Made by a program: the position numbers and the translations under genes | Shown: piece after piece, positions 13,842 to 39,799 of the stretch | How the letters are laid out: the number at the start of each line of letters is the position of its first letter | Numbering within the stretch: the stretch's first letter is position 1 | The notes under the pieces: model-generated | The model's database searches: none | Told to the model about the DNA's origin: nothing | What the model saw: only the letters and a program-made list of their open reading frames with translations | Assembly (NCBI GenBank): GCA_000002445.1 | Contig: AE017150.2 | Span: forward strand, 288,001 to 352,000 | Reading direction: 5' to 3' | Length of the DNA stretch: 64,000 nt | From: Trypanosoma brucei | Taxonomy: Eukaryota

Positions 13842-14438
13842 TGACAGATTGCATACTACGACGCATATAGAATTTGATCATACACTTCATGAAACTGAGA
13901 GTAGACATGTCGTTTCAGTTTGTGTTTTTTTAATTGCGGCATCCCGAGAAATGCCAAAATAGACGAGCTCCCAAACAAAGAAAAACATATGCCGTCAATT
14001 TGTAGTTCACAGATCACCAACATTGTCACAGGTATAACGCGCCAATTATGTAATTAAGCACAATGCGAGTTTGCTGAAGGCCGAGGCCCAAACATATACT
14101 GCAGTGTTTTACTAAACCATGTAAAACCGACATACAAAATCAAGGCGCTAGACATGTATGATGAGTCACTGTTGGCTCAATTTAAAACAGGGACTTCAAA
14201 ACATTTTGGATGGACACATAGGGTGATCACATGAACAGGTGAATAACTGAAGTGCAGATGGTGTACAAAGTACACGGGAAACAATCTCAAAAACACCCCT
14301 TACCCCACTCAAAACACCGTAAAGATGTAATAAACTGAGGAAGGCAAGGTGGCAATAGCTGCAAGACAGAACGACCCAGTCATATGCCCAGTTTGCAACA
14401 TCGTCTGTGTGACATGACAGGCGGGAGTTGTTCACACG

Positions 14439-14768
14439 ATGAAAATACATCAGTGTGTTCGTGAAAGTACACTAGCTGCATTAAAGATTGCGCCGAGAGA
14501 AGCACAGGTGTATAATGACGTCTATAAATGTCACGTATGTGGTAAGGTATTTGACGGAATGGGATTACTGCAACAACACATGCCACAACACCCTCCGACA
14601 ATTCCAGTAGTATGGACAGAGCAACAAAAGAGGAGGCGAGAAGAAAATTCGGTACAAACAGTCTACAAGTGTCGATGGTGCCCGGAGCAGTATGCCACGT
14701 ATGGCTGGTTGACCCGACATATACGACTGAAACGTCTTGAAAAGAGAAACCTGCCTTACCAAACATAA
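14439..14768 (+). pseudogene. C-terminal C2H2 zinc-finger region of the ingi-like element
   Basis: The pattern CHVCGKVFDGMGLLQQHMPQH ... YKCRWCPEQYATYGWLTRHIRLK is typical of the ingi/L1Tc ORF C-terminus. Confidence 0.6.
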
Positions 14769-16139
14769 GTGCAATCCGGAGCATAGTGAAGGAAAACCAA
14801 GTACACCGCTATAGGAAGTACTGCCCGAAAGAGAAGCATGTAAGATATGCGGTGAAGAGTATCACCACAGCTGGATGTTACGTCATATGAATGCGAAACA
14901 CCCCTGGAATGATATCTTACTCGGACCCTAGCCGATAAAAAGAGAAAAAGTGATGAATGAGATGTCAAAGTCACAAGCGACGGGAGACACTAGTGGTTAC
15001 AACAAATGATGAGGATGACAATTAACCACTACTTTATGTTTGCGACAAATATAAGAGGGGTTTCAAAAGCAATACATGGCTAACACGTCATAAGTGCGTG
15101 AGTATTTAGAAAGTGGACCAGAAAGATGAGAAGGTGAACAACACCCATGGAGCAGTTACCCGACTAGAAACCACCACCAAAAGTGGATTGAAGCCTGGCT
15201 CAATAAATAGAGCACTTCTCAACTCAGACTCGTTACACACAACAAAACTTGAGCTTTATGGCAAGAAAGAGAATAATAGACCGAGCATGATACGCCAGCA
15301 AATGAGATGGCAGTGAGCGATCAGAGATAAGAGCCCAAAAACAAACGACAAAAAGGCTCAATGGCAAACAGATAACCCACGTAGAGAGTTTGCATGTGGA
15401 AGGCGTAAGAACTCCTACATATCATTGTGTACACTAGTATGACATACCAGGACACACCGCACAAAAATGCAATCACTTTCAAGAGAATGTGTGAGAAAGG
15501 CCCTTTAAATCACGCTGCTGGCCCCTTTTTTACAGCAATGCCAACTCTGGTCGAAGGTTTGTGCACACACGAAATATCTAACAATGCTCCTCCAAGCACC
15601 ACATGGGCAGTCACGTACATCTGATAGGGGAAATGAACTAAAAGAGAAATGTAAAAAAAACATCAGCTCACCTGTTAAAGTGTTCGGCTTTGAGTAAACT
15701 AAGGTCTGAGCATGAAGTAGACAGTCCGAAAGGCGAAGATATAGATATTTTAGCATTAAACTTACCAACTTCTTAAGGGCACTCTTCGTTACGACGGTAA
15801 ATCCGGCTTCCACCGTAGACACGAAGAAATTGATAACCCAACTGCGAATGAAGAAAGAAAGGTTACTCACGCTAAACATCCATCGACTCCGTGCGACACA
15901 CTTGGATGACAGCCAGTGAGATTTTCCTCAACTGATGGAAAACAGTATCTGAAGGGGGGTTTCCTCAACAAGGCACCGTTAGCCAGGCCCCAGCGGAGGA
16001 AGCGAGTGGCGGGCCTTGAGGATGGAGAACATATCGGTGGAGAAAGTGGCCACACCGCAAGTCTATATGGATTAGTTGAGGTGCGAGCAGATTAAATGCA
16101 CATTGGAAAAAAAAAACGCAACTTTCTGACTGTTGTGCA

Positions 16140-16235
16140 TAGATGCGTGTTTTATGTGAAAAAGCGCCGCAGATGGCGTTGTAACGCCGTCTTTACAAAA
16201 TAAAGCGCAATAACATGCGTTTTACGCAAAAAATA
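16140..16235. repeat. Three degenerate relic units of the 29-bp satellite
   Basis: The units 'gatgcgtgttttatgtgaaaaagc', 'gtaacgccgtctttacaaaataaagc' and 'aacatgcgttttacgcaaaaaat' align to the satellite unit. They lie on the far side of the retroelement, just before the inverted-repeat arm. Confidence 0.6.
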
Positions 16236-16237
16236 CT

Positions 16238-17553
16238 CCGAAGTCGCGCAGCAAATCACGGGTTTACCGCTCACGGTGACTCACGTGGTGGAGGAGCAGA
16301 ACCCCCCCCCCGAAGTAGGAAGTGAGTGTTGTTTCAGTAGTGCCACAAGTGATAGGCACGACAGACCGATATTATATTCATTATTTAAACTAATGCTACT
16401 GGGTTAAAGAAAAAGGGAGGTAGGAGAAAGAGATTGAGAGGTGCATTGAAACTCCCGCAGGAAACCAGCCACTGGAAACACCAGGAGGTCAGAGGTGCGC
16501 TGCCACATGCAAGGCGAAGGAACCTGCGCAGATGGGGAAGGAAATAACGAGGCAACACACAATCGAACTTGATCACAGTCCTAAGTGAAAAAAAAACAAA
16601 AAAGCTCGCGTACTTTTTAACACAGTTACCACAACCGTAACAGCCGTTGTTAACTTCCTGAGAATGCCCTTATCCCTGTTCAATTTGGCCACAATCCATG
16701 ATGGTGATGGGCTGACGTGTGGCACCTGACTGGCTGCCGTTGGTTTCAACCTTCTCAATGACTTCGTATCCCTTCGTTACTTGTCCAAAAACAACATGTT
16801 TCCCATCCAACCAGGGAGTTGCAGCTGTGCAGATGAAGAATTGCGATCCATTTGTGTTGCGGCCTGCATTTGCCATGGAGAGCGTCCCGGGACCAAAGTG
16901 CTTCCCAGCGCGGCCCGCGAAGGACTCATCGGGAAATTTCAATCCGTATATTGACTCTCCACCCGTACCGTTACCGCTCGTGAAGTCTCCTCCCTGACAC
17001 ATGAACTGAGGGATGACGCGATGGAACTTGCTTCCCTTGTACGACAATGCCTTGCCAGATCGTCCCAGGCCCTTTTCACCTGTACATAATGCACGGAAAT
17101 TCTCCGCCGTTTTCGGTACCACATCCTTGAAGAGCTCCATTTCTACCCTTCCAGCCTTCTGGGAGCCAATGGAAATATCAAAATACACAAGTGGGTTGCT
17201 TGGATTGACAGGATAGAACGGTATCTTCCTCTGAGCTGCAAAAAAGGTGCGCGACAACATGTGTGCGGCAGGAACTAATTCTACAGCAGTGAACTTATGG
17301 GTTGTCCTTTGACCGGATGACTTGAATGAAGGAGCAACGAAAGCGCAAATATATGTACTTTTCTTTGGGGGGGGGGGGGTGGCAGTTAGTCTCGCACAAC
17401 AGTTAGCACCCGATTCCAACGCAAGTATTGACATAAACACGAGAAGGTAAACCCTTCGCGTGGCAACGCCGGTGCACAAACACTGGAAATGCATTTAACA
17501 AAAGCCGAGGGCAACCACAAGGTAACGATGCTGCTACCTCGCAGTGTAAAGGA
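16238..17553. repeat. Left arm of a roughly 1.3 kb inverted repeat carrying the cyclophilin gene and its flanks
   Basis: This arm is the reverse complement of 27413-28714 and is near-identical. The embedded ORFs are identical. The only differences I saw are G/C homopolymer lengths. Confidence 0.9.
16670..17260 (-). CDS. Cyclophilin-type peptidyl-prolyl cis-trans isomerase, 196 aa with an N-terminal extension relative to CypA
   Basis: Cyclophilin signature motifs are present: [48 protein letters not shown] and [10 protein letters not shown]. The ORF track extends this copy to 274 aa (to 17494), but only because a G13 tract fuses it to an upstream frame. The Met at 17258-17260 matches the start of the other copy. 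Confidence 0.85.
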
Positions 17554-18670
17554 GGAAGGGAGAGTCACCGACAGTGGGACTTTTCTATTAGTATGCGCTA
17601 TCCCTTGTGGATGGCAAAATAATGACGCGGTAGACCCTGTTGTTGCCTCCCCAAAATAACTGACGCATAATTCCTGACGCTGCACAAAGTTTGACTTGGG
17701 CACGCTACATCACAGCCTGGGAAGAAAGCGAGATGCCAGACAGACGTTCTTAAAGTGCATTTTCTGCGCGACTTACTTTACTTTTGCTGAAGGGAAATGG
17801 GGCATTGTCGCTTCATGTACAGAGCATGTGCCCTTGTATTTTTTTTTTTAAAGCGTGTTTCCACGAGTTTTGGTGAGAGCATGTTGCTAGAGTAGTGTTG
17901 AAAGACGGGATTGGCCTACAACTTGAAATGCATGACAGAATAACGAGCACCACCCTTCCTGGAGAACAGATCATAAAAATAGTCTTCACAACTTTGTTCG
18001 GGTGCGTGCGGAAAAAGAGTCTCGAACATTGGGCCATTTCGTTCAGCCATCTATTCCCATCATAGGGACTCCGCCAGTGGCTATTCATATTAGAGGTGTG
18101 AGCACTTTGGATTGGATTTCCCTTAGTACGGCCGTTACACCGCGGAGCCTGACCACCGCACTAGAGGCAGTTTCCGTGGAAAACTGTTTATTGCATCTTT
18201 CCTCTCTCGGTCCAACCCACTTTGAATTGAATGACCGTCGCACCATACCTCCATTTTTCTTCCAATTCCCAGCTTAATTTCAACATTGCAGCACGTTCAG
18301 TGAGTTCCTTCCACCGCAATCAGCTTATCCCAGCCGTTCAGCGTACCAGCACCAAGATTTGAAAAGCTTTGTGAGCTTAATTTGCCACGCACCGGTGCTA
18401 CCAACGTGAGTTTCTACAAGTGCTTGCTACCATTCGAGAAGAATTACTTCAGTTATTCGGAGGTTTACACACAACGTACAAACCTTGATAAACGTTAGAG
18501 AAGATGATTCTCCAAAAGAAAGAGCGCAGTCATGAGTCACATTGCGAAGTCCCCGAAACAAGAACCGCACAGCGTGAATGCGCTAAACAGTGTGGTGAAT
18601 CGCCGAACGGTGCCGAGTACAGCACCAGCGTAGCGCACAAGGTGTTCATATCTGCCTCACAATATTGAGA

Positions 18671-19603
18671 CTAAATTTGCACAGCGACAAGAATCGACAC
18701 CAGACGGCTCAATTCGGTAAGTGTACCACAATCATAGACGGTATGGTTATTTCCTAGAAGGAACTGCACGGTCGGACCAGCTGTCGCTTCTTCTAACCCT
18801 AACTCAAGTCCACGTGGGATGCCTTGCGGCTTGCTTTCCACTTCTTGCACGGTTTGGCCAGTTGCCTCCTCAACAACAACCTCCAGCTCACGTAGCTTCA
18901 AGGTTGCAGCAACAAAGGAAGACCGCCAGTGTTTTTCAGAAACAGTACAAGGCATCGTGGAGTAACCATCGATCTTGCACTTCGAGGCAGCAGCTTCGTA
19001 GCTCTGTTTGCTTCTGTAACTGTTACCATCTGCCCCTTTTGATGCAGTGGGCTTCACTTCGTCCCACATTCGCACGAGGTTGTTCATATCACGGGATGAG
19101 GGTCCACGTGTGCTGTTGGCGCCCGACTCGACAGTAGCATCGCAAGTAATCTCCTCCTTTAATTTGTGGTCAGGTGGTTCAATAGGAGATACGCTCCTGT
19201 CACAATTTTGGCTGAATGGAAGGTGATGGTTTTCATCAGGATTCCTGCAGTGAGTACTCAATACTGTGCTCAAACCCCTCGCACTTTTCGCTGCTTCTGA
19301 CTTTACTTCCTCGGCCAATTCCATTGCTCTCCTTCCTAGTGATTTGTTGCCCTCAACCATTTTGGAGAGTTGATCGACTCTCTCCTGAACCTTTTCGATG
19401 TGCTCCTTGAGACGGCACAATGCTCTTGCAGCTGGGAGTTTAAGGTCATTGCGATACCTATATCCAGTGTCGGCTGCCGGCTGCTGGTCATCTAAAGCCA
19501 TCACGGCCATTGTGAGGCACAGTTTAACAAAAGCGGGAACCACTAACGCGGCTCCGTACCCCAACGTGTTGAGTATTTCTCTGCTATCAGAAGGTGATGC
19601 CAT
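18671..19603 (-). CDS. Hypothetical protein, 310 aa, with one predicted N-proximal hydrophobic segment
   Basis: This is the longest ORF in the region. Its non-repetitive composition resembles the neighbouring genes. Its orientation fits the leftward unit, pointing away from the strand-switch region. I recognise no domain. Confidence 0.5.
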   Translation of the reverse strand: MASPSDSREILNTLGYGAALVVPAFVKLCLTMAVMALDDQQPAADTGYRYRNDLKLPAARALCRLKEHIEKVQERVDQLSKMVEGNKSLGRRAMELAEEVKSEAAKSARGLSTVLSTHCRNPDENHHLPFSQNCDRSVSPIEPPDHKLKEEITCDATVESGANSTRGPSSRDMNNLVRMWDEVKPTASKGADGNSYRSKQSYEAAASKCKIDGYSTMPCTVSEKHWRSSFVAATLKLRELEVVVEEATGQTVQEVESKPQGIPRGLELGLEEATAGPTVQFLLGNNHTVYDCGTLTELSRLVSILVAVQI

Positions 19604-22600
19604 GCATAAAGCCCCTTTCTCTTTGCAGTCGGAGGGAGAATACTATGGGTACAAAAACAGCGTGACGAGTGTGGCAGCCGAGATAAGAAGCATTGAATTT
19701 TAGCGCTTGACTGGACATTATTATTATTATTATTTCCACAGTAACCCCTTACATCATTCCATGAACGCCAAAACCCCAAGGAAGGCGTTTCTACATGGGT
19801 TGGACCTGTTATCGACATCTGCCAAGGGCCATGCACACAAAAAACAATGTAAGGATGGTGTTGACCTTAAGCCAGCTCACCAGCAGGTTGATGACCTCTG
19901 ACTGGTTGCTTTCCCCCTCCTGACAAAGAAACCCGCTGATATATCTGGTGAGTAAATACTGGTACTCAAATACAGAGCCGAATCTGATCACTCATACACA
20001 CGCTGCAGTGCGAGGGACAACACGCCACTTATATGTAGGTGCAACAATCATATCGATATTGGAAACGCAGACGCATAATCGTGAGCACCGTGTGGTTCAC
20101 AGACTACACCACCGTCGCGGGCAAGTGGGGCGAAAAATTACTCCTGCTACGAAAACACATGGAAAACTCACAAAAAATGACGAGAATCAACTGGTACACG
20201 AGACACTAAAATCCCGTTGAGAAACCAACGTATTTTACACCGTCGTTGATCTTGCCATTTTTTCCCCTGCGTAATCAACGGACATTATGCGGCTTCCGAA
20301 CAATGAAGAAACCGCTAGGTCAAGTGAGGAAAAGCGACCACTCCATGGTGTGCGAACACGAGTAATACGTTTAAAAGACATTCTAAAGATGTTCCTGTAC
20401 GCTGGTGCAACCACTGAATGGCACCCCCCAGAAACGACCAACACAAGTAAGCGCAACACGCTAGGTTAAACACAATGATGTATCTAGAGGTGGACAAAAC
20501 GACGTTTACTTACCAGAACCGGCGAGGCTCGTATCTCTCTTCACCACTGTGTCGAGTGACTCACAGACCACGTCTTTGAAATACAGACGGTAAGTCCCAA
20601 AATACATATAACATCTTCCGTTGACAATTCTCAGTATAACAGCTGCATCGGCGGTACATCTGAGAGTTTTTTTTTTCGTAACTCAGAAGGGAGCCACCGA
20701 AGCAACAGTATAAGCATTGTATAGAATACGGTGAACACCGAATAGACAATTCACTACAGGGGAAAAAATATATTGTGAACACACCTTCGGGTGTACAATA
20801 TGTAGTGGGAATCCAACCGAAAGGACAAACATTAACATATCATCCTCCCTTGTAAGCACAATGAAGCTACCAAATAAAGTGTTGACTAACCACTGAGAAA
20901 ACTAACGGGTAATTCGCAGCCGCAAACCGTTCACATTTATTTTCAGACATTTACATCTTACCGACAGTCCCTTTTCTAATTAGTAAACGGTGCACTCATA
21001 ACGTCACTCACTTTCCCTCCCTGTGCTATCGAAGGATGCTCTGTTCCCCCTTTGTTTCAGCGACTGACGGCTGCAGCGATAAAGCATTACAAGCTCTTCA
21101 AAGACATGAAGAAATCGTTATCGTAGTCATTCGACTTGCACATCAATGCACATGTTGGGCGTGTTTCCTCCTTTACGCAGAGATGTTGTTTATAGTTTCG
21201 AAGTGACACTCTTTTGCTGTGCACAGCCGAAGTGACTACATCATATTTGCTGCATATAACGAACTGGATTATTCGTGCATTTGGTTCAATTGTCACTGCT
21301 ATTCGACCAATAGCCAAGCAACATACAGGAGTCTATGCGTTCTATGGATTACTCAGGACGCATATGCACATATATTTGTGACCGATATGGACAAAACATC
21401 GTACTGGCATTAGCAATACGGATTGTTCTTGAGGTGCAGACCCCTTTTCGTCAGGTTTGACCTTGTGTCGCCGCCATGTACAGTTATTATCTCCTTTGGG
21501 AGACAGAAGCCTCCCTTTCATTGGCACTGAGCTTCGCATAAAAAAAAAAGGTTTAGTCGGTGCGTATTGATGCTTCAAATGTACTACAGTATATCATTAA
21601 TCACCGCGAATACAGGAACCGTTCGTAACTTGCATTTCCAAATGCCCACGTTCGACAATTCGGACCATCTGAGTCATCTTGTTGACAGTCCTTTTTATTT
21701 TGCAGATACGCGAAGTATGCTAGTGTAGAAAACACCGTTGCAAAATGTAATATTTCTTAACAGACCGATTTCAGCACGCGTGACAATCCTGCATGCGTGA
21801 GTTCAAATTCCGTTGGCGCAACCACCGGATGTTTGGATCAAGCTGTGTTCAGTAGCTACCGCGAAGAGACGACAACTTTTTTCTTGTGAGATCGAAAGCT
21901 TCCAGCAGCCACCAGCCCCTGGTCGGTCACTCGTTCTCAGGGGAAGAAAATCCCAAGTATAGCAGGGACTGTCTGCTAGAGAAGAAGGAATTTCCCTCAA
22001 ATAAACACACCTGAAGCATATCGTACTCCAACGGGATATGTACCATCAGGCCACAGGTTCACACTTGAGGTAGGAAACCATCAATGCCACCAATTACTTG
22101 GTGGGAGTTCAGTGTGAAGCGAAACAAAATCGACTGCATTCGTACCGCATCACCGCCTAGACAGTGAAAGTTACGACATACCTGCTTGTTATTCTTCGTA
22201 TACTTCTGCTTCTTTTCCAGAGGCCGCACTATTCTAACGGGCCCACTTTCAGAAGTTCTGCACCAATGATGCACTATTACCTTCCTTCCAGTACACCGAA
22301 CCCTTCAAAGTCTTTTCCATATGCATATACCACCACATGCGGTGATGAAGCGTTGTACAGCACATCCAAACCCAGCTGATCCCGACATACAACACACCAC
22401 CTTGGGACCAATGCGTGCGGAAAATCCTGAGTGCTTGAGCCACTCTTTGATACAAGTCAGCTCCACCTAAGGAATCTTCGTTGGTCACTTTTACGATTGC
22501 CCGCTCGGCGCGCAGCGCCTGGCCCTCCATGAAAAATAGGAGGACACGTGGACGCATATACTTTCCACTTCGCTGTAAAGGTCCGCTGCCCAGCCATTTG

Positions 22601-25600
22601 TGCTACCACCAATGAATCACCTGCTGCCGCTACATGCGTACCATGCTCTTGGTTTTCAAGGGGTGCACAGCGGCAGGGAGCGTTGCTCGAATCCGTCCTG
22701 TGTGACGTTAACTCCACAAGCGCAACCGGCGAGGGCCTTGCTATTTCAGGGCAGCCTCATTTCAGTATCAATCACGCTTCACTCCCTCACGGTAGACATC
22801 CAGCGGCTGTTCGTAAACTTCGCTTCGCCCATCAGATAAAACTCCCCCCTCTTTCCCATTCAGCGCCCACTAACTCCGCGATATCGCAGCCAGCACATCT
22901 GCCCTCCTCAGCGCTGGATATTTCACAATATTGCAACCCGGGGCTGACCCCTACGGTGCCCCTTTCCCTCTTTCCAAACCCTCGGTAGCGCACCCCCCTA
23001 CTGTTTTTTCCATAGCAGCAGTCAAACGCCAGAATGTTTTATACCGCATTCGCCTCAGTCATTTGCCACCGCGGACGGGGCCTGCGGAGAATATCTCCAC
23101 TCCCATTGGTCAGACCACATGTCAATATCTTCACAATTTCCCAGCGTACGCCGCTGCAGCGTATGCAACAGAAAAAAAAACTTTTGCAGGGCCCCGACTA
23201 ACTTTCACACAAGGGGTTGGGGCATAACATTGTGTTGGGCAGCCTCAGCTCGGACTGACAGCCCGATGCGATTAGAGCCACCAAAAGCTCGAAAATACGG
23301 ATTCCGTGACTAACGTAAGGGCAACCCGGACACCTCTGGTGCTTAACCGGTCCCCTCCCGGCGACCGGAATGACAAAGGTGGCATGTCAGTCCTTTGCAG
23401 CTGAATTCAGCATTGGTTGATTCCGACGTCGGTGGCAAAACAGCGCTCTCCACATAAATAATTTATCCATCTCCCGATCTGCGTCGGAAATGTAGGGGGC
23501 TGGACAGCGTTACCACACTGAGCCGACCGTAATTACAAAGGAGCACTTCGTATGGGTTCCCACTGGCATCGATCGGCATTTCCGATTTTGTTTTGTTCTT
23601 CATGTGCTGCCAGGGGACTGGCGACGGCGTTCGCCCCCGGTGAATATGGCTGCTGCGCCGTACGGCCGGCGAGCCGGCGATATTGAAGGGGCTTCTGCGG
23701 GGCCACCATGAGGTCACTCACGTTTTTTTTTTTTAAATGGGGAAGAAACCGAATTACTCACTTCAGTTTCAGTACTTCTGTTTCCCGCTTTCTGCAAGAT
23801 GGGACGCTATGCCCAAGACCTGTGGCTCCAAGGTATCGCGTAGGGGCTTTTGGCTAGGGATGCGATTAGAAGAAGTACGGGAGCCGGACTTGGTGCGAAA
23901 GGATTCTCACGGGATCGCGTTGAATACTGCCCCGTCACCGACCATCGAACCGCCGTTCACCACTTGCTTTTTTCTTTTTCCCCATGGATGTCAGGGTCCC
24001 TGCAGCGCATGAGTTTGTGACTGTGTGTGTGTCTGTGTCGCTCACGTCTAATGGTGTGGAGTCAACGGGATGACCTTCACGATTACTTCAATATCTCTGT
24101 CTGGGCTTTAATGTAAGTTTTTTCCCTGTTGAGCTGCTTACCAAAGACGGCGCATACGATTGTGGCGTCTTTGCTAACGCAAGACATTTCTGAAAGGTGG
24201 GTTCTTGGCACTTCTTGCGCGACCGCAACTTGATCCTTACGAAGTTGATTTTTTTTTTTCCAGCCGCTGCATTCAATGGCGTCTGAGCGGCTTAGTTACG
24301 GAGCGGATAAGTGATGGTGGTGAACATTTGGGCCATTGGCCGTTGCTGCACAACTTTATTTGCACACTGAGAGTTGCCCAACGCATTATGCCCGCACTGG
24401 CACGCAATGAGACCATGTGGGATTGAAGAAAACGACAACAACAAAAACGCCGAAGTTCCCCTCTCTGGTGTAACATGGTTTAACATGAGTTGATTAGTGT
24501 CCCGGAGGATTTACAGTTATAACGATATTGTGGTGCTTACCTTTCCTCCAGAGCAAACTCGACAAAAACTGTTCATGTTTGGGTCTCTGTGACGTGGATG
24601 GAGTGTTCGTAAGCATATGGAAGCTGATGAAAAGGCTGTTGACAATATCAACGGTGACGTGACACTTTGTGTGAGCAGAAAGGAATTCCAATTTAAACTA
24701 AAACCAGGCCAACCAAACGATTTCTGGGGCCCGCACGGGTGATTGTTGACACTAAAGGCGGAATCAGTCGGGCGCTAAAGGATATATATTTTCTTTTTAC
24801 CGAAGGTCTGTAAGAAATGATGGGGCAGAAACGAGGTACACTGCTACCGTGCACACATTTAACCAGTTGACGCCAAGATAACTAAATGATGTCATAAAGT
24901 TTCTGCATGATAGCCTGTAATGTGTTGTGTGGAAACGACTCACTACGGATGCACAATCGTAAGCAACACTCGGTTCTTTATCGGAGGTTAAGCTGTGCTG
25001 CATATACATATGAATTGGTTACATGCTAGCTTATGCGGTTATTTTCCTATTTTTTGAGGACCAATATAAAAATGAAAAGACCACTCAGGGGATGACCGTG
25101 TCTGCGTGAGCCGTTGCGGGTTATCAGAGGCTTGGAAGCAATTTACCATGTTATCGGCGTGTGGTATCGCGTACACATGTGTATAAATGAGCTGTATGCA
25201 AGTGGAGCTATACCGAAACAGAAGTCTGAAAGATATTGTGAATCACTTTCCCCCCTTTGATATTGTGTGGTTGATCTACGTGAGTCTGAGGATACTTGGG
25301 ATTTCAGTGCTGCCATTGTAAAAGTTTGGATTGTCAGCAGCTTTTAAATGAATGCTGAAAAAACAGAGGGTATGGTGGGTACGTGACATGCTGCAAACTT
25401 GTGTTTGTGACGGTAGGGAGAGTGGTGCACACTGACAGGTGACATCAACGTGTTCACATCAACTCTCCAACTCGATACGTTGCTCGCGTTGTGAAGGGAT
25501 GCTTCTCACATGAAGTGACGGGGTAATTGTTAGACAAAAGGGAGGTGATGACTCCATTTCGGTATGTTTTTTCTTTTGGACGCAAACTGATCAACCAATA

Positions 25601-27688
25601 AGAATGACACGCGCACATTCTTCTGAAGCAGAAGCTTCAGTGGCAAGTTGGTTTCCATCCCCCAATGATAGAATGGGGCGCCCTCCGAAGACACACTGCT
25701 GTTTTTTTAAACAGTATGCCGATCTAAGCGCGCACTGCAGGTACATGATGTGCTGAATAAAGGTTCAAGTTTCATTAGAAAAAAAGATCAATACTAGCAA
25801 AAAAAGTGGCTTCAGCAACGCTGACAACTATGATGTTTTAGAAAGCAGCGGCATGGTCGGTGAAACGGACTACAGCGCACGACACGTAGATGCGTGGAAA
25901 AGGTAAGACCGGAAATTAGTCGTTTTCTGTTAAAACACCCCCCTTTTGTGTGTTAGCAGCGGACGCAAAACCATCTATTCGGGTGCGAGACGTAGTGAGC
26001 CGACAAACAGGTTTCCACTCGGTATGCCCCAAGAGCAGGATTTTTTTTTCGATTTCTTACAAGAAACTCCCACAATGAGACATGCCGCGTGCCGTTAGCT
26101 GCTGATAAGAATTGTATTAATCCCGATTAGAATTCTGGATCTGCTGTATGAGAGTCCGAATCGTGTTCTCCAGTATCTCACGTGTTAATGAGAGAGAGAT
26201 TTGTATACCGGAACCCTATGAATATATGTGTGAATGTGTATGTGTGTATTAATGTGCTACAGCAGTGTACAAACCTATGGAAGTCTCATGGTGAAAATGT
26301 GAACGGACAAGAACAGACACCGGTGGTGTTGTTGCTGCTTCCTGCATCAATACATCTTTGACTTGACCTAACAGGAGACGGACACTGGAAAGTTGGAGCA
26401 TGCTGTGGAATCGTAAGGGGCTTTGCACCGCAGCGGAAGAACACATGAAAGGGTCCGATGTATTATATTTCATACAAAAACCTACGGATTTTTTTTGGAG
26501 GATATGCTGTGACACCCTTTCTAAGGTGAGGAGGAGGAGGAAGTAGTAGCAACAAGCGGCACAACACCAGCACGCGCAGGAACCAGTTATCACTCATTTT
26601 TATGTATTATTACTTGCGTATGACCGCACTGACCAGCCGCTGAGGAAAGACTGTTGCAAAGTGTTCGATAACTTTGGTTTCCTTGTGAGGTGAATGAGAC
26701 ATTATTTGCTTTGCCTACCATTCGAAAGCAAAATAATGTTTAGGTGAGTGTATGCATGCACCGTGGCATCCCAGCTTCTGATATCGTCTCCTTGCCTATC
26801 TGTACCAAACGTCGACGCACGTGAAACCACCGCTGAAGGGGGATACGGGTGATCTACATTAAGGTGATGATGAAACGACTCTCCCCCCGTGCAGTTGCTG
26901 TTCTCGGGGAGTGGCGCTGGTAATGTATTCGATAGAATCTATTTATCAGAAACCGATGCGTTGCCAACCATAAACACTCAGCGCTCCCCCAAAAAGAGGG
27001 AGTGAAGTCGGCAAGAATCTCAGTGTTGTTGCCTTGGGGTGAAGCCATTAGAATAATCAACCCTAACCCTCATGCTCTCCAAATCTGGGGGATGAGGTGT
27101 GTGGTTGAAAAGGGATTCTAGCTGACTGGATGCACAAAGTCATGTTGTTCCACCAAATGTAACGAACACACGCGCACTCGTTCATTTATTTGCTAACAGC
27201 ATCTAATAGGTCTTTTAGTACATACAAAGTCTTCAGGCAGTTCGATTTAGACATATATGTACATGTTGCGCACTTACCAGTTTGTAAAGAGTGGGCTGCC
27301 ACCAATTTTGAAAGATTGTTGACTCTTAAAACCAAAGACTGGGAAGTGTTGTTCCACTACTTGACAAGTCTGACACCGCACTCGTAGGACGATAGTGTCT
27401 TTTTTAACACTGCGAGGTAGCAGCATCGTTACCTTGTGGTTGCCCTCGGCTTTTGTTAAATGCATTTCCAGTGTTTGTGCACCGGCGTTGCCACGCGAAG
27501 GGTTTACCTTCTCGTGTTTATGTCAATACTTGCGTTGGAATCGGGTGCTAACTGTTGTGCGAGACTAACTGCCACCCCCCCCAAAGAAAAGTACATATAT
27601 TTGCGCTTTCGTTGCTCCTTCATTCAAGTCATCCGGTCAAAGGACAACCCATAAGTTCACTGCTGTAGAATTAGTTCCTACCGCACAC
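19604..27688. promoter_or_regulatory. Divergent strand-switch region, a putative bidirectional Pol II transcription start zone of about 8 kb with no convincing ORF
   Basis: Genes to the left are on the - strand and genes to the right are on the + strand. Only short overlapping ORFs lie in between. In kinetoplastids such divergent strand-switch regions are the sites where polycistronic transcription starts. Confidence 0.5.
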
Positions 27689-28714
27689 ATGTTGTCGCGC
27701 ACCTTTTTTGCAGCTCAGAGGAAGATACCGTTCTATCCTGTCAATCCAAGCAACCCACTTGTGTATTTTGATATTTCCATTGGCTCCCAGAAGGCTGGAA
27801 GGGTAGAAATGGAGCTCTTCAAGGATGTGGTACCGAAAACGGCGGAGAATTTCCGTGCATTATGTACAGGTGAAAAGGGCCTGGGACGATCTGGCAAGGC
27901 ATTGTCGTACAAGGGAAGCAAGTTCCATCGCGTCATCCCTCAGTTCATGTGTCAGGGAGGAGACTTCACGAGCGGTAACGGTACGGGTGGAGAGTCAATA
28001 TACGGATTGAAATTTCCCGATGAGTCCTTCGCGGGCCGCGCTGGGAAGCACTTTGGTCCCGGGACGCTCTCCATGGCAAATGCAGGCCGCAACACAAATG
28101 GATCGCAATTCTTCATCTGCACAGCTGCAACTCCCTGGTTGGATGGGAAACATGTTGTTTTTGGACAAGTAACGAAGGGATACGAAGTCATTGAGAAGGT
28201 TGAAACCAACGGCAGCCAGTCAGGTGCCACACGTCAGCCCATCACCATCATGGATTGTGGCCAAATTGAACAGGGATAAGGGCATTCTCAGGAAGTTAAC
28301 AACGGCTGTTACGGTTGTGGTAACTGTGTTAAAAAGTACGCGAGCTTTTTTGTTTTTTTTTCACTTAGGACTGTGATCAAGTTCGATTGTGTGTTGCCTC
28401 GTTATTTCCTTCCCCATCTGCGCAGGTTCCTTCGCCTTGCATGTGGCAGCGCACCTCTGACCTCCTGGTGTTTCCAGTGGCTGGTTTCCTGCGGGAGTTT
28501 CAATGCACCTCTCAATCTCTTTCTCCTACCTCCCTTTTTCTTTAACCCAGTAGCATTAGTTTAAATAATGAATATAATATCGGTCTGTCGTGCCTATCAC
28601 TTGTGGCACTACTGAAACAACACTCACTTCCTACTTCGGGGGGGGGGGGGTTCTGCTCCTCCACCACGTGAGTCACCGTGAGCGGTAAACCCGTAATTTG
28701 CTGCGCGACTTCGG
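27413..28714. repeat. Right arm of the inverted repeat
   Basis: This arm is the reverse complement of 16238-17553. Confidence 0.9.
27689..28279 (+). CDS. Cyclophilin-type peptidyl-prolyl cis-trans isomerase, 196 aa, inverted duplicate
   Basis: The protein is identical to the minus-strand copy. The cyclophilin motifs are as listed for that copy. Confidence 0.9.
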
Positions 28715-29224
28715 TGTGTGGTTTCGGTGCGTTAACATGTAACAGTAACATGCTAGTGAGTTAGAGTCGGAGGATACCCATTCCTTTGCTTACACATGGA
28801 TGACACGTTGTGGGGAAAGTTAGGCATGCATTCGTGGTAGGATTACGTCAGTCACTTCTTCCTGCAGTAAAGCTGTAGTCCCCGGAGAAAAGGGGTACGT
28901 ATTGTTTGGGGGTGCGTTTGTGTGTCATTCCGTGAGTTGGGGCGATGCAGTTGTGCGGTCTTGCAGTCAATACTGGTTTGTTGAGGTTTGCCCTCCTCAT
29001 GAATTGTTGTTTTGTATTCTGTTTACAGTTGACGACTGCAGGCCAGCCGTTTGTTGATGGCATGCGCACTACCCAAATGGGGGTACAACTGAGAATTGCT
29101 GCTGCAGCGTCTCACTTTAACGCTGGTGTTGCCTGACCTTATCGACCGCGTTAATACCTTTGTTTTTCTTTTACAACCTACTGCACCACAAGTTTAGTTT
29201 GCGAAGTGTTTCTTTCTACGAGTT

Positions 29225-31513
29225 ATGCTTGTCGGGGTGCTTGTTTTGTACATCCTGTGCGCACCGCTCGCTGCTGTCGGAAGCATTGCAAAGTACAGTA
29301 AGACTGTCGTGACCAAAAGGCGGCTGAGAGGCGACGATGACACGTGGACGCGATATAAACCCACACCACCAGGGGCGCAACGTCTATTTGATAGTTTAGA
29401 TGAAAATACGCCCCTTCCCAAACTTCCCATTAAAACTCCGTTCTTCAGTTACGACAGTGTCGAATGGTACGTTTCTCCTTATGGGTTCCTCACCCTCACG
29501 GCGGTTCCCATGTGCAACTCGTTCTGCAGGGAGGGTTTGGATTCACCACTCACTGGCAGCTATCGGTTTGCCCGAAGGAATATTTCTGAGGGCGGTGACT
29601 GGCCGTTAATTGGGCTATTTGTTGCTGACCTTGATGTAACGAATTTGGCAGGGGATGCAGGCGTATACTATTACACACTGGATGGTGAAGAAAACCCCAC
29701 GAAGGTGATCGTGGAATATAGAGACATCCCCGTCCTGAATTGCCATGCTGACGGCAACGAACTACTGACCGCACAGGTTGAAATTTCAACCGATGGAGTT
29801 ATTGTAGCACGCTATGAAAAGGTTCCAAGATGCCGAGGCTCCGTGGGCATCGTGTTGTCGAAGAGCCAGCGAGATATCGTACAGTTTAGGCAACGCGAAA
29901 TGGGTCTCGTCGCGGTACAGTATACTCCCGTTCCTGATACCTGTGGAGAGCGGAACGAAGGATCATGTTCTGAGACGTGTACGTGGTGTGCAGCAACAAG
30001 TAGCTGCATGTCGGCGCCACTTGCAGGTGAAATATGCCCGAGAGTGTCTTCGAATAGTTCGTTAAATCATAACCACTATTACACCGTTACCGCAAAGACG
30101 GAATCAGGGAGCACCCAAGGAGGCCAGTCAGGGGGTGAGCCACTGGATACCACCGGTAGCAGTGTGAAAGTTCCCCTTCGTTTTGAGTTTCCTTTCTTCA
30201 CAAAGGGTGTGGGGAAGCACAAAATAAATAGTGTGTATATACTCTCATCTGGAGTTGTTTCGCTACTCTCCAACAAGCAAGACTGTGGTCCACTGAAGAA
30301 TGTGTGCAGCAACGGAAATTACAGCTATGCCATCATGCCATTTGTTACGTCTCAAACATGGGGCAATTCAAACGCGGTGGTTTTGAGAAGAGAAAGCGAA
30401 TCCATTACCATTTTCATAACGACTAGATCCTTCGGTGAGCTATACCACACGTACACGTATTGGTTGCGCCTTGAAAAGAGCGGTGCTATCACGTTTCACT
30501 ATCTGGCGTCTACTGTAGCAGGGTCGAGAGAAGCTTTGAGTGGGTTTTTCGCGTTCCCCCCACCGATGATTGGAGTCGCTCGTTACGGTATGGGCGATAA
30601 TGCAAGCATGATCGTTCCTTCCGCAGTGGCACGTCCAGGCACCACTGTGCGCTTCGAACCCCGGAATGAGCACGACGACTGTGGAATCAACGGGAGGTAT
30701 GAAAATGGAGGGTGTGTGTGTTCAGAAGGATTCCAAGGTAACTTCTGCGATGATTGCACTTCAGGTCATTATGGACCCAGGTGTACCAAATGCCCCAACT
30801 GCCAGAATGGGGGTGTATGCGACAGTGGCCGAGGTGGATCGGGCCGTTGCAAGTGCGCATCCTCTTTTGGTGGGAAAAACTGCGAAAAGAATTGCGGGAA
30901 CAAGGGTTGCGTGAACTGCAATTCTGTGGGGGGCTACTGTGACTGCGGCGTCTGCCGCTGCCATGAGGATAGTGGATGGAGTGGTCCGGACTGTACCACC
31001 TTTGAAGATCCGTGCCTGAAATTCTCCCTTCAGGGTTGCGATGCCTGCATGAGTCAAGAAGAACACGGCTGTGCGTTTTGTGCTGATGGCGCGTGCTATT
31101 CTACGAAATTGGAGGGAACCTCGCTTAGCCATGCGTGTTCTTACAAGGCTGAGACCCGTGATGCTCCAATCTGTCAAAAAGTCCTGCAGATTGCGCAGTC
31201 CGGCACTGACTTTGGCTATATAATATTTTTCGTCTTATGCTTGAGCGCTATTTCACTCGCTGTCATCATATCCCTTCTATCGCGCTACCTGATGTATGCG
31301 CGGAGAGTGGTTAATGTCCACGTTGCCGCAGCTGCGGGAGGCGCTCCCGACTACGTTCCTGTTCGACGGGAGCGAGAAGTTGTGCAGGCTGGTTTTGTAC
31401 CAGTGAACTTACCCAAGGGTAAAAAGTACGTTTTGGGTGTCCCACTGAAGCAGATATCGCTTCACAAACTGTATAAGGAACAGCAGAATGAAGGGTTCCC
31501 TAACAAGGAATGA
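29225..31513 (+). CDS. Type I membrane protein with laminin-type EGF-like cysteine-rich repeats (paralogue 1), 762 aa
   Basis: An N-terminal signal peptide (MLVGVLVLYILCAPLAAVGS) is followed by a roughly 450-aa ectodomain. That leads into clustered Cys modules (CxCxxGFxGxxCDDC, HYGPRC, CKC..GKNC) and a PSI-like CDAC...CAFC..GAC segment. A TM helix (FGYIIFFVLCLSAISLAVIISLL) and a 90-aa cytoplasmic tail follow. Confidence 0.8.
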   Translation: MLVGVLVLYILCAPLAAVGSIAKYSKTVVTKRRLRGDDDTWTRYKPTPPGAQRLFDSLDENTPLPKLPIKTPFFSYDSVEWYVSPYGFLTLTAVPMCNSFCREGLDSPLTGSYRFARRNISEGGDWPLIGLFVADLDVTNLAGDAGVYYYTLDGEENPTKVIVEYRDIPVLNCHADGNELLTAQVEISTDGVIVARYEKVPRCRGSVGIVLSKSQRDIVQFRQREMGLVAVQYTPVPDTCGERNEGSCSETCTWCAATSSCMSAPLAGEICPRVSSNSSLNHNHYYTVTAKTESGSTQGGQSGGEPLDTTGSSVKVPLRFEFPFFTKGVGKHKINSVYILSSGVVSLLSNKQDCGPLKNVCSNGNYSYAIMPFVTSQTWGNSNAVVLRRESESITIFITTRSFGELYHTYTYWLRLEKSGAITFHYLASTVAGSREALSGFFAFPPPMIGVARYGMGDNASMIVPSAVARPGTTVRFEPRNEHDDCGINGRYENGGCVCSEGFQGNFCDDCTSGHYGPRCTKCPNCQNGGVCDSGRGGSGRCKCASSFGGKNCEKNCGNKGCVNCNSVGGYCDCGVCRCHEDSGWSGPDCTTFEDPCLKFSLQGCDACMSQEEHGCAFCADGACYSTKLEGTSLSHACSYKAETRDAPICQKVLQIAQSGTDFGYIIFFVLCLSAISLAVIISLLSRYLMYARRVVNVHVAAAAGGAPDYVPVRREREVVQAGFVPVNLPKGKKYVLGVPLKQISLHKLYKEQQNEGFPNKE

Positions 31514-35380: not shown

Positions 35381-36696
35381 CGTTTTTTTTTGATCATTGC
35401 CCAGAATTTGCTACTCTGGCGGTGAGTTTAGTTTGACACATTTTTATTTTAGCACTGTGGGTGGTAGTCTGGTCCTTTCTGTTGGTACTATTACTGGGAG
35501 GGGGAAGGGGGCTAGCGGTGATGAACATTGGGTTCTATATTTATCGACCCTATCAAGCAATACGCGTAATGCGGCACAAGAGCAAGTCGTTAGCCACACT
35601 GTTTGTTTTCTCCACTATTTCGCGGACGTCGCAGGTCGCCGGCAGCAGCTTTTTTTTTTTTTGGCTTCTGGTGGATATTACCGCTTGCGCGGTGTCCTTT
35701 GTGTTTTTTTCGTTGATGGTTTTCGACGCTGTTAGCTGCGGTGCTGCAGGTGCTACCTGTCTTTCCCCCACCTGAACCATTACACATCCAGTGGTTTATG
35801 AGCGCTTTACTTGGGTGCATTTGTACACGTTAGTTCGGGCTCATGTGTGAGTTAGGTGGGAATATTCTTTGCATTCAAGAACCCACACAACCCGTTTGAG
35901 ACTTTGACCCCGAAATTCTTGTTTAACGTCGTTTCGTGACATGTTCTCTTTGGCAGCTCGTAGCTTGAGGATTTCATTGCGTATCGGAGGAGATGTCCCC
36001 GTGGTTCCCATAATTTCACTTTTGTCAAAGAAAAGGTGTTTCACCACCTAAAACATCATATTTGCCATTATTGGATCTGCCTCAGCGTTGGTATGGTTTC
36101 AATACCGCAACCCCACGTGAGGAGACGAGATTTCTGGGCGGTGATTTTATTGATGCCAGGGCTGGCCCGCCTCCTCGACCCGCTCCGTTTCTACCAGATT
36201 GGTAAAGGCTAGAAGTGGTTTTATTATAAGGGGGACAGTATCAGGGGTTTTTCTTTTCTTTTACAAACAGCATATAACTACACTATGACCGTTATAGATG
36301 TCACTTTAACCCGTCGAGCCGCAACATAAGTGGTCCAGTGGGAGTTTGTTAGCCTCTTTGCACGATTGCTTTTGTGGTGAGAGTAGCGAATTCGTTGCAC
36401 ACCTTCTGCCCCCTCAAATGTTTTTGTAAAAGTGCGTAGGAACGTATAGTAGGATCAGTCAGTTCTTGTCTTCACTAATAATTATCCATGTGAGTTATCA
36501 CCTTATGTGTGTATTCTGTGTTTAGAGAGCTTGCAAAAGGTCCACGTTTTCTTGGATCAGACCATATGGCCGAGTTGAACGGCCCTTTTTATATCAGGGT
36601 TTCGTGTTTAAATACCCCTGTTTGTGCTGTAGGCATTAGTGCCGTCGCTTGACGGCATCCCCTAGTGCAATTATTGTAAATGCTGTTTACCATTTC

Positions 36697-36790
36697 TCAG
36701 AGAGAACGACAGAACCAAAGTCAAGATAGTCCCTTTACTTTTACTCACTCATCTGACCGTGAGTGATAAAGTTTCCCGTGTCTCTATTGT
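36697..36790 (+). pseudogene. Orphan 3' fragment of an EGF-like membrane protein gene, encoding ...QRERQNQSQDSPFTFTHSSDRE*
   Basis: This stretch is identical to the 3' end of CDS 37391-39799 but is preceded by unrelated sequence. Confidence 0.7.
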
Positions 36791-37312
36791 GCAATGAATC
36801 CTCGCAATGCTTCACGGCATGATTTGTGGGAGTCTCACCCGAAATGTTGCGACCTGTGAGTGGCCCCCGTAATCTGCGGTTTTCTGTTCAACGGGAGTGT
36901 AACTAATCCCAACGTTGTGTGGTTTTATTTATTTTTTACATCTCTTTTTAACCCTCCGCTGCTTTCTGCAGAAGATGCACTCGGGACTCGTTTAGTTTGG
37001 TCTAACCACCTTTCTTTCTCTTTTTTACTTTGTTCCCCTTTACTTACTTTTGTTTGATTGTATCGGCTACAGATGGTGACACCTCCTCTCAATGTATTTA
37101 GCGGGAGTGCGGTGCTACCTTCTTTTTGATGATGACTGGTACTTACACACATGGTAGCTGGCCATAGGCTTGTTGTTAGGGTGTAATTTCCATGACGAGC
37201 GGCTATTGTTAAATTCACCTTCCTGTCCATTTTTTTTCTCATCAATTCACTCAACTGTTGGCTTTCTTTCCTTTTTGCAAAATCCGTTGTGTGTACAGAC
37301 TCACTCCCACAC

Positions 37313-37382
37313 TTCTTATGTTCTTTCCCTTTTTCTTTCCTTATTTTCTCTTATTTTCCCTTGTTATCTTTTGCATTTTAAG
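37313..37382 (+). promoter_or_regulatory. Polypyrimidine tract plus AG, a putative trans-splice acceptor for the downstream EGF-like gene
   Basis: A roughly 65-nt C/T-rich run (ttctttccctttttctttccttattttctcttattttcccttgttatcttttgc) is followed by AG at 37381-37382, 9 nt before the ATG. Confidence 0.5.
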
Positions 37383-37390
37383 TTATCGAA

Positions 37391-39799
37391 ATGAGTATTC
37401 TGTGGCTTACTTGTATCGTTGTAGTTGCAACAAATGTTGCTTCTGGTCGTGCTGCTATAGTGGGATATGAGACTGAGATTGTGCGTGCAGGTGATTTTAG
37501 CAAAGGTTCGTACCATTGGGCAAAATACATCGAAGGAACCGGACCGAATACCCGTCGCATATCTTCCTTTCGTGATGGAATTGTACACCATGAGGAACTC
37601 GGCTTCATGTCACCATTTTTTAGCAGTGATAACATAAGTTGGCATGTTTCACCATTTGGATTCCTAACGTCTCTATCGTTTCCCCCATGTTCATCATCTT
37701 GTGTGAGAACCACACTTCGCTCACTGCGTAAACAAAGTGAGCAACCCAAGAGCAGTGACCGTTTCTTGCCAATGATCGGAGTGTACGTTGCAGATTTTAG
37801 TCCTTTCACTAAAGTGTTTACTTTTAAAACGCGGTACCCAAACGATGAACGCGCAGAGAGTGGGGGATGCCACATAGTGGAATATAGAAGTATGCTGATG
37901 CATGGTTGCAGCTCCAGCGAAAAGAGTAGACTGAAAGCACAGGTGGAGGTTTGCTCTGACGGATTGATAGTGATGCGTTACAGAGAGGTGCCGAAGTGTG
38001 GTCCTGTTTCTGTGGGCATTGCATTGTCTGCAAGAGAGCAAAACTTTACATTTATCGACTCAGACCTTGAGGATATTGTTGCCATACGTTACAGCCCCGT
38101 CCACGACAACTGCAGTAAGTTCAGTACTAACCGAAGTTGCAATGATATGCACGGAAGGTGTAAGTGGCATGAGACTACGGACGAATGCGTGGATGAATCA
38201 GTCGCAAAAAGTAGATCTCCCCGCCGGACGCGCAGTGAATCAATACCAGCATCTAATGAATACTACGATCTAAAAGTCTCGCGCAGTTCCCGCAATGTAG
38301 ACTACGACGACCTCCAGAAGCACTTCAAATTGCTTACAGTGGGAAAAGTTGTTGGACTTGACCTAGGGTTTAGTTTCCCATTCTTTGCTAGGGATCAGCC
38401 GAATCTCCGCACGAATAGGGTGTACATACACTCATCTGGTGTAATTTCACTTTTTTCTGAGAAGCAAAACTGCAAGCCAGTCCGAAACATGTGCCCTAAT
38501 GGAGATTACAGCTTTGCCATTATGCCGTTTGTCACACCGCAGACTTGGGCGAGTAGAACGTCGGTTGAATACAGTCCACTTGGAAAACGGGTAAAGGGGG
38601 ATCCATTCTGTAATGATTCCCACTGTCTGGAGGGAATTGCCATTCGTGTATCAAGCCGGACGTACGACTTGTCCCTTCACAAATATCAACATATTGTATA
38701 CCTTGACCAAAGTGGCGCCATCGAGTTTCGATACAGTGAAGGTATTGAAACCTTTTTAGTGTTGACTGGTAAGGAGTTTTCTGCTGTTCCGCCACCATAC
38801 ATTGGAATATCTCGGTCCGGTATAAATGATAAAAACACCATTATTGTTCCTCCATCCCTTATAGGTGAGGACAAGCAGGTTCGTTTTGACACCTCACAGA
38901 GCTGCAGCCACTGTGGAGCCAATGGACGATGCGTCTCTCCAACAGGGAAATGTGAATGTTTTGAAGGGCATATTGGGAAGTTCTGTGAGGAGTGCTCTCC
39001 AGGCCATTACGGTCCGAGTTGTATTAAATGCCGGAAGTGCGAGAACGGAGGGACTTGTGACGACGGTAGAAAAGGATCTGGGGGGTGCAAATGCATGGGA
39101 ATGTTCAGTGGAGAGAATTGCACCACGAAGTGCGCCAATTCGTTTGACTGCAGTAATTGCAACCTCCATGGGGGGTACTGCGAATGCGGCACTTGCCATT
39201 GCTATGGAACGAATGGCTGGAGTGGAGAAAACTGCAGCGTTTTTCAAGACCCCTGCCAGCGACTGTCGTTTGGGGGTTGTAAGGTGTGCCTAAACGACAC
39301 GGCCAACGAATGTGCCTTCTGCAGCGATTGGATGTGTTATTCGAAGCGCTTGAAAGGGACAATGAATGAATACCATTGCCCCGGTAATATATTCGATGAG
39401 GACCCGTCACTTTGCTTACCCCTGCCGCAGCCGGATGCGCCAATGAAGGAAAACGGCATTGCTATACCTCTTGGTCTTTCATTGTGCGCTCTTTTTTTGG
39501 CCTGCGTTACGTTGATTCTACTCCGATTTGTCCTTTTGACGAGGGGAATCGTTAACTTTCTTGATGTGGGTGCTGCGGGAGGTGCCCCAAGTCATGTTCC
39601 CGCACGCCGCGAGAGAGAAGTGGTACAATTTACGTTCATACCGCGTGCAGCAGCGGAAGGAAAGAAGTATGTACTTGGGATTCCGCTGAAGCAGATACCA
39701 TTGCAAAAACTATACAATTATCAGGAGGCTCAGAGAGAACGACAGAACCAAAGTCAAGATAGTCCCTTTACTTTTACTCACTCATCTGACCGTGAGTGA
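37391..39799 (+). CDS. Type I membrane protein with laminin-type EGF-like cysteine-rich repeats (paralogue 2), 802 aa
   Basis: The architecture matches paralogue 1: a signal peptide, a conserved N-domain (WHVSPFGFL, VYIHSSGVISLFSEKQNC, AIMPFVTPQTW), EGF/PSI-like Cys modules, a TM helix and a conserved tail (GGAPSHVPARREREVVQ...GKKYVLGIPLKQIPLQKLY). Overall identity to paralogue 1 is about 35-40%. Confidence 0.85.
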   Translation: MSILWLTCIVVVATNVASGRAAIVGYETEIVRAGDFSKGSYHWAKYIEGTGPNTRRISSFRDGIVHHEELGFMSPFFSSDNISWHVSPFGFLTSLSFPPCSSSCVRTTLRSLRKQSEQPKSSDRFLPMIGVYVADFSPFTKVFTFKTRYPNDERAESGGCHIVEYRSMLMHGCSSSEKSRLKAQVEVCSDGLIVMRYREVPKCGPVSVGIALSAREQNFTFIDSDLEDIVAIRYSPVHDNCSKFSTNRSCNDMHGRCKWHETTDECVDESVAKSRSPRRTRSESIPASNEYYDLKVSRSSRNVDYDDLQKHFKLLTVGKVVGLDLGFSFPFFARDQPNLRTNRVYIHSSGVISLFSEKQNCKPVRNMCPNGDYSFAIMPFVTPQTWASRTSVEYSPLGKRVKGDPFCNDSHCLEGIAIRVSSRTYDLSLHKYQHIVYLDQSGAIEFRYSEGIETFLVLTGKEFSAVPPPYIGISRSGINDKNTIIVPPSLIGEDKQVRFDTSQSCSHCGANGRCVSPTGKCECFEGHIGKFCEECSPGHYGPSCIKCRKCENGGTCDDGRKGSGGCKCMGMFSGENCTTKCANSFDCSNCNLHGGYCECGTCHCYGTNGWSGENCSVFQDPCQRLSFGGCKVCLNDTANECAFCSDWMCYSKRLKGTMNEYHCPGNIFDEDPSLCLPLPQPDAPMKENGIAIPLGLSLCALFLACVTLILLRFVLLTRGIVNFLDVGAAGGAPSHVPARREREVVQFTFIPRAAAEGKKYVLGIPLKQIPLQKLYNYQEAQRERQNQSQDSPFTFTHSSDRE

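Follow-up and report, generated by a model that had tools for sequence, protein, structure and literature searches.

For two well-known inverted repeats, those of the plastid genome and of the yeast 2-micron plasmid, both isomers of the enclosed segment have been demonstrated, and the flip of the 2-micron plasmid is driven by a dedicated recombinase. The palindromes of the human Y chromosome are said, after work of Rozen et al. from 2003, to be maintained by arm-to-arm gene conversion. In Trypanosoma brucei TREU927, seven large inverted repeats of 422–10,011 bp have been catalogued; the high identity of their arms was noted, and the authors suspected that something maintains it (Tschudi et al., 2012, PMC3447711, Table 3). 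Tandem gene arrays of T. brucei are likewise well known to evolve in concert (Jackson, 2007, PMC1855330; T. b. gambiense genome paper, PMC2854126). A further inverted repeat is described here from a 64,000-nucleotide stretch of T. brucei chromosome 2 (GenBank assembly GCA_000002445.1, contig AE017150.2, positions 288,001 to 352,000 of the forward strand), which is referred to below as the window and in which all positions are counted from the first letter. Two arms of 1.3 kb, each with a complete cyclophilin gene, bracket a divergent strand-switch region beside the centromeric satellite. The locus is very probably a pericentromeric inverted segmental duplication of a cyclophilin cassette, made before the split between TREU927 and T. 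b. gambiense DAL972 and homogenised by conversion.

The near-identical arms, the unique spacer and a likeness that is greater within a genome than between genomes are the features of an inverted duplication kept by arm conversion, and all three were found at this locus. In mechanism, the closest analogue would be the human Y palindromes, which likewise have inverted arms with intact genes, a unique spacer and arms that are more similar to each other than to their orthologues. The Y arms are far longer (9 kb to 1.45 Mb versus 1.3 kb) and, unlike them, the cyclophilin repeat lies beside a centromere, on a diploid chromosome that recombines, and has one housekeeping gene per arm. With the plastid and 2-micron repeats it shares identical inverted arms around a unique segment and genes that stay intact after inversion, but it has been seen in one orientation only, in two assemblies, and no recombinase is involved.

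The cyclophilin repeat also resembles the repeats of Tschudi et al. (2012, PMC3447711): it belongs to the same genome, has near-identical arms and, with a total span of ~11–12 kb, is similar to IR5, IR6 and IR7. It is not among the seven repeats listed there, of which the chromosome 2 entries lie at 898.6–902.2 kb (422 bp) and ~994 kb (10,011 bp), and on that listing it does not belong to the long inverted repeats that produce small interfering RNA. All of the listed repeats are sources of small RNA, whereas the cyclophilin arms are read outward from the divergent region, so that no single hairpin transcript is expected. By its place near a regional centromere that contains satellite and retroelements, the repeat also recalls the centromere-flanking inverted repeats of Schizosaccharomyces pombe (PMC1868937; PMC3292466); here, in contrast, the satellite array (2384–10393) lies outside the arms, and the arms bracket a strand-switch region. 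As in the tandem arrays of T. brucei, whose copy number or content varies between subspecies, gene cassettes and their flanks are homogenised by conversion. Unlike those arrays, which run head to tail within one transcription unit, the cyclophilin pair is inverted, has two copies and belongs to two opposed units. The structure is of an ordinary kind, but it is missing from the published catalogue of large inverted repeats in T. brucei (PMC3447711).

Structure of the inverted repeat

A repeat search over 14–31 kb returned three collinear inverted pieces, split by indels, which were joined by gapped blastn into a left arm at 16235–17550 (minus strand) and a right arm at 27403–28717 (plus strand). 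The arms are reverse complements of each other, with 1308 of 1320 aligned positions identical. They differ by three substitutions and three indels, and two of these indels are changes in the length of a homopolymer run. Each arm holds the whole cyclophilin cassette, that is, 5' flank, coding sequence and 3' flank. Between them lies a spacer of 9,852 bp (17551–27402), which was unique by repeat search and blastn. No other inverted repeat of at least 150 nt is present within the 64-kb window. Similarity ends sharply at the arm boundaries: when the spacer was compared by sensitive blastn with itself and with the window, and the two flanks with one another, there was no extension of the palindrome past the arms, no internal repeats in the spacer and no similarity of the spacer to the rest of the window.

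Several claims of an earlier reading of this DNA, made from its letters alone (the sequence-only reading), held up. The arms that it had placed at 16238–17553 and 27413–28714 are indeed reverse complements, and their limits are now refined to those given above. As it had described, each arm carries one complete cyclophilin gene of 196 amino acids (aa) with flanks, which measure 286 bp on the 5' side and 438 bp on the 3' side. The outer edge of the left arm does abut relics of the satellite, which were located at 16134–16233 by satellite similarity scoring. Likewise, the spacer consists of a 310-aa gene and the predicted divergent strand switch of about 8 kb, now measured at ~7.8 kb. Finally, the placing of the cyclophilin genes second in the leftward unit and first in the rightward unit agrees with the consecutive NCBI accessions XP_951503–XP_951506, which were assigned to the left cyclophilin, Tb927.2.1600, the right cyclophilin and ESP10 respectively.

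The spacer also contains, at 17759–17774, a stretch of 16 nt of which 15 match the terminal bases at the 3' end of the arm. It is oriented opposite to the left arm and sits just before a satellite relic at 17802–17885. With a blast E value of 0.13 the match is not significant alone; it might be left over from an earlier rearrangement.

The repeat in related genomes

The repeat is real and has been seen in three genomes, those of TREU927, DAL972 and T. equiperdum. Chromosome 2 of T. b. gambiense DAL972 (FN554965.1) contains two identical cyclophilin genes. Two loci fetched from this chromosome were joined and aligned to the window, and positions 16219–37647 were recovered as one collinear 21.5-kb block of 98.9% identity, with no N run and with both arms detected. 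The boundaries and the orientation of the DAL972 repeat are as in TREU927.

In the scaffold of T. equiperdum OVI (CZPT02001626.1), a single contig comprises the spacer together with the greater part of an arm. Along this scaffold (10857–12692), the spacer and arm are followed by 1.6 kb of left flank and then by the right flank, via two to three N gaps. The left-flank and right-flank contigs each start 22 bp inside the arm, and at 28695 they show the same left/right difference as TREU927 (G versus A). The scaffold is likely to represent a genuine two-copy repeat that was collapsed by the short-read assembler and probably mis-scaffolded.

Evidence for concerted evolution of the arms

The left and right arms of TREU927 and DAL972 were compared in a four-arm alignment. 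Within 27407–28714 there are 13 substitutions at which both arms of a strain are alike and the two strains differ (27586, 27609, 28171, 28222, 28251, 28267, 28430, 28447, 28541, 28545, 28589, 28618 and 28668). Private changes number four, two in the right arm of TREU927 and two in the right arm of DAL972. The arms of one genome differ at two to three positions, as against 13 between genomes. In the arm interior, the alignment contains no left-versus-right difference that is common to both strains; such shared differences are confined to the outermost positions of the arms (27406 and 28715) and to the sequence outside them. Because these edge differences are shared, the boundaries of the repeat predate the split of the subspecies.

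Divergence between the strains is 1.0% in the arms (13/1308) and 1.1% in the spacer, from which it follows that the arms evolve at an ordinary rate, but together. Four of the 13 shared changes fall in the coding sequence and the others in the flanks. Since the proteins differ only at M188T, three of the four coding changes are silent, and with so many of the changes silent or in flanks, selection at the protein level cannot explain the identity of the arms. The pattern is that of concerted evolution, in which the arms would be kept alike by arm-to-arm gene conversion, and it points to intrachromosomal conversion rather than selection as the putative mechanism. At least one nearly full-length conversion would have occurred since TREU927 and DAL972 separated, and conversions in both lineages appear more likely.

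The events very probably ran as follows. The cassette at 27403–28717 occupies the ancestral site, as the first gene of a long rightward transcription unit. A second copy was inserted in the opposite orientation, ~10 kb away across the strand switch, where the border of the centromeric satellite was decaying, and this duplication took place before the split between TREU927 and DAL972. Thereafter, non-reciprocal homologous recombination between the arms would have converted a tract of about the whole arm, 27407–28714. A conversion may occasionally have been resolved as a crossover, which would invert the spacer.

One consideration weighs against this account. Sanger assemblies can blend the reads of near-identical repeats and so exaggerate the identity of the arm interiors, and the arm-specific differences do lie mainly near the arm ends. 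The presence of such variants near the ends nevertheless indicates that the copies are at least partly resolved in the assemblies. The age of the duplication is given relative to the split of the two strains, and the 13 changes are given as differences without polarity.

Origin of the second copy

A single cyclophilin gene was found in T. vivax (L004), in two T. cruzi strains (L009 and L010) and in two further contigs, one of a trypanosomatid (L005) and one from Logan (L006); within the DNA fetched from these outgroups, no second copy was found. In the outgroups the cyclophilin is followed by a ~122-aa gene, a DUF7881 gene, a ~204-aa gene and a PIGA-type glycosyltransferase gene. The same order is found to the right of the right arm, where T. 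brucei differs by the extra insertion of ESP10. Gene order shows the right copy to be the ancestral one, because the single copy of the outgroups has the same downstream genes. The left copy is a derived insertion, at the DNA level, into an old satellite edge, because it lacks synteny with the outgroups and is flanked by satellite relics on either side. A retrocopy origin of the left copy was considered and rejected, as the arm includes the upstream pyrimidine tract and no poly(A) follows its 3' end.

In the two T. cruzi strains (L009, 1–9000; L010, 1–6200), the cyclophilin gene is the first of its cluster, and reverse-transcriptase fragments and opposite-strand open reading frames (ORFs) lie directly upstream. 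The gene has therefore long lain beside a strand switch rich in retroelements. Retroelement-rich strand-switch domains have been described as T. cruzi centromeres (PMC1868937), and the surroundings of the T. cruzi cyclophilin resemble them. This hints that the centromere-adjacent position of the gene may be conserved between T. cruzi and T. brucei chromosome 2.

Alternative explanations

The sequence-only reading proposed a possible flip-flop of the spacer by homologous recombination between the arms. On this view, reciprocal recombination would invert the 9.9-kb spacer often enough for both isomers to coexist in populations or to differ between strains. This is doubtful, for TREU927 and DAL972 share one orientation in a gap-free alignment, although two informative assemblies make a weak test with little power against a polymorphism. 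The satellite relic within the spacer (17802–17885) is, moreover, oriented as the main array, in keeping with the view that the spacer still has its original orientation. The arms themselves, being 1.3 kb long and >99% identical, are well suited to homologous recombination, and the conversion that they have evidently undergone can resolve with a crossover, so that rare inverted molecules are expected. The contention that every gene would still point outward after inversion is geometrically sound: the inverted spacer remains divergent, and only Tb927.2.1600 would change units. Some 8 kb to the right, a 955-bp direct repeat brackets a 3-kb segment in TREU927 that is absent from the DAL972 assembly, a difference that makes repeat-mediated rearrangement in this neighbourhood plausible. 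Of the comparison across strains that had been suggested as a check, the part on arm identity brought out concerted evolution, and the part on orientation yielded no second orientation in TREU927 or DAL972. Since inversion yields no new junction sequence, short reads are uninformative, and a read or clone must exceed 1.3 kb to tell the isomers apart.

The T. equiperdum scaffold, on which the side of the spacer with the 310-aa gene leads to ESP10, was examined as a candidate for the flipped isomer and rejected; its joins pass through N gaps, the left flank lies between and the repeat is collapsed.

It is very unlikely that the repeat acts as a reversible switch, in which a crossover flips the putative RNA polymerase II start region beside the centromere and changes the expression of Tb927.2.1600, with both isomers being kept. 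If this were true, Tb927.2.1600, which encodes a T. brucei-specific ISG-like surface protein, would move from a two-gene unit that runs into pericentromeric DNA and become the leading gene of the long rightward unit, and the locus would provide a phase-variation-like inversion in a eukaryotic parasite.

A very recent duplication without conversion, whose arms would have had no time to diverge, is scarcely credible. It would accord with the three substitutions between the arms and with their sharp boundaries, but T. b. gambiense has identical boundaries and edge differences (27406 and 28715), which makes the duplication older than the 1% divergence of the strains, and 13 changes made after the split are found in both arms of one strain. 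The sequence-only reading had taken the identity of the arms to imply either recent duplication or ongoing conversion. Conversion is favoured by the changes that the two arms of a strain have in common, and the boundaries common to both subspecies speak against a very recent origin. The many fixed differences between the arms that were named there as contrary evidence did not appear, since inside the arms no difference is specific to the left or the right copy in both TREU927 and DAL972.

The suspicion, also raised there, that one arm is an assembly artefact, a misplaced copy of a single-copy gene, can be dismissed almost entirely: near-identical repeats are a classic source of misassembly, and the short-read assembly of T. 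equiperdum did collapse the arm, but two independent Sanger assemblies match base for base at both boundaries, both arms are present in DAL972, private variants occur in each arm, and the two flanks of T. equiperdum are found on separate contigs that carry their own arm-specific variant.

The strand-switch region

The 310-aa ORF of the spacer is Tb927.2.1600 of T. b. brucei TREU927 (100% identity). This gene (18671–19603, minus strand) is specific to T. brucei, encodes an ISG65/75-like protein (PF11727, E = 7e-20) and opens the short leftward unit. The unit comprises two genes only and is followed by retroelement and satellite DNA. The cyclophilin, Tb927.2.1600, a 762-aa ORF and a 270-aa ORF are all exact-sequence matches to proteins of TREU927 chromosome 2.

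Apart from Tb927.2.1600, the spacer consists of ~7.8 kb without an ORF of more than 146 aa, and the non-coding divergent strand-switch region extends over 19604–27402. A tRNA scan and an Rfam scan at gathering cut-offs, both covering the whole window, found no RNA gene. The genes that flank the spacer point outwards. GC skew is negative over ~17–23 kb and positive beyond, and AT skew changes in the opposite way. The skew therefore reverses sign inside the spacer, near 23 kb, which together with the outward genes gives the layout of a divergent strand switch, where transcription presumably starts. On the right, the second gene of the rightward unit (29225–31513, plus strand) encodes a protein with an EGF-like domain, which has been named ESP10, or Tb927.2.1700 (PMC11732084).

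Farther to the right, the 955-bp direct repeat (99.4% identity; 36696–37647 and 39729–40683) brackets an 802-aa EGF-domain gene (37391–39799). The DAL972 assembly has one copy of this repeat and the 802-aa gene is absent; T. vivax has a 784-aa gene in that position. The difference stems either from a deletion that the repeat mediated in T. b. gambiense or from collapse in the assembly.

The centromeric surroundings

An AT-rich satellite with a 29-bp unit occupies 2384–10393 (plus strand), where ~277 copies make up 8.0 kb. The centromeric array of chromosome 2 was described as 8.0 kb of a 29-bp, 66% AT repeat between Tb927.2.1470 and Tb927.2.1560 (Obado et al., 2007, PMC1868937, Table 1), and a 29-bp array on this chromosome was likewise mentioned by Tschudi et al. 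(2012, PMC3447711); a paper on repeat arrays (PMC3292466) makes no mention of chromosome 2. In unit length and in total length, the array of the window equals the published one. The inverted repeat adjoins this centromeric array and is therefore pericentromeric. The whole array lies to the left of both arms, and the centromere is not bracketed by them.

From the satellite array to the left arm (10394–16133, plus strand) extends a degenerate relic of a retroelement without long terminal repeats, in which reverse-transcriptase and C2H2 zinc-finger fragments were recognized. Satellite together with retroelement is the usual make-up of centromeric regions in T. brucei. The degenerate satellite relic inside the spacer (17802–17885, plus strand) consists of ~3 units of 29 bp and lies ~250 bp from the left arm. 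Its local score was 23, a value above the highest score, 17, of 2000 shuffled windows, and it has the orientation of the main array. A 70-bp satellite-like stretch with a small internal near-palindrome (16149–16218), directly outside the left arm, is present in TREU927 and absent from DAL972.

Identity between TREU927 and DAL972 falls from ~99% to the right of ~15.87 kb to 78–92% across the retroelement (10394–15850), where the ratio of transitions to transversions is 1.2, versus 2.3 rightward. A single 500-bp bin within the retroelement, at the reverse-transcriptase core (12501–13000), keeps 97% identity. The low identity could be due to fast pericentromeric turnover, to deep haplotypes or to non-orthologous copies.

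The cyclophilin genes

The coding sequences of the two cyclophilins are located at 16670–17260 on the minus strand (left copy, XP_951503) and 27689–28279 on the plus strand (right copy, XP_951505). The two 196-aa proteins are identical and have a full-length match to Pfam PF00160 (residues 27–191, 161.7 bits against a cut-off of 21.7, E = 2e-47). They are 87% identical to the 21-kDa cyclophilin of T. cruzi, and both belong to one 90% cluster; by this similarity and by the shared downstream genes, the right cyclophilin is the orthologue of the T. cruzi enzyme. A link of the locus to a five-copy array of 'cyclophilin + hypothetical' on chromosome 6 (PMC2854126) was considered and rejected, as the window belongs to chromosome 2 and there is no second cluster of homologues for the 310-aa protein.

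In the NCBI annotation, the left cyclophilin is a 274-aa 'precursor' (XP_951503). The ORF finder also gave 274 aa for the left copy (16670–17494) and 196 aa for the right. Upstream of the ATG, a poly-C tract is five bases longer in the left copy than in the right, which shifts the upstream reading frame and may explain the longer open frame. The 274-aa extension is probably an annotation artefact because the orthologues measure 194–196 aa, except for some T. cruzi annotations of 210 aa, and the annotated length of the left copy is thus probably wrong.

Biological significance

Reads from the two cyclophilin copies are indistinguishable, which affects both expression studies and knock-out work on these genes. 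The locus would be the eighth large inverted repeat known for T. brucei, and for this one homogenisation by conversion, suspected for the repeats catalogued before, is now supported through a comparison of subspecies. It also provides a defined substrate on which mitotic conversion and crossover can be measured close to a trypanosome centromere, itself an early-firing origin of replication. Finally, the right edge of the chromosome 2 centromere would have been built by the insertion of a retroelement and a gene cassette into decaying satellite.

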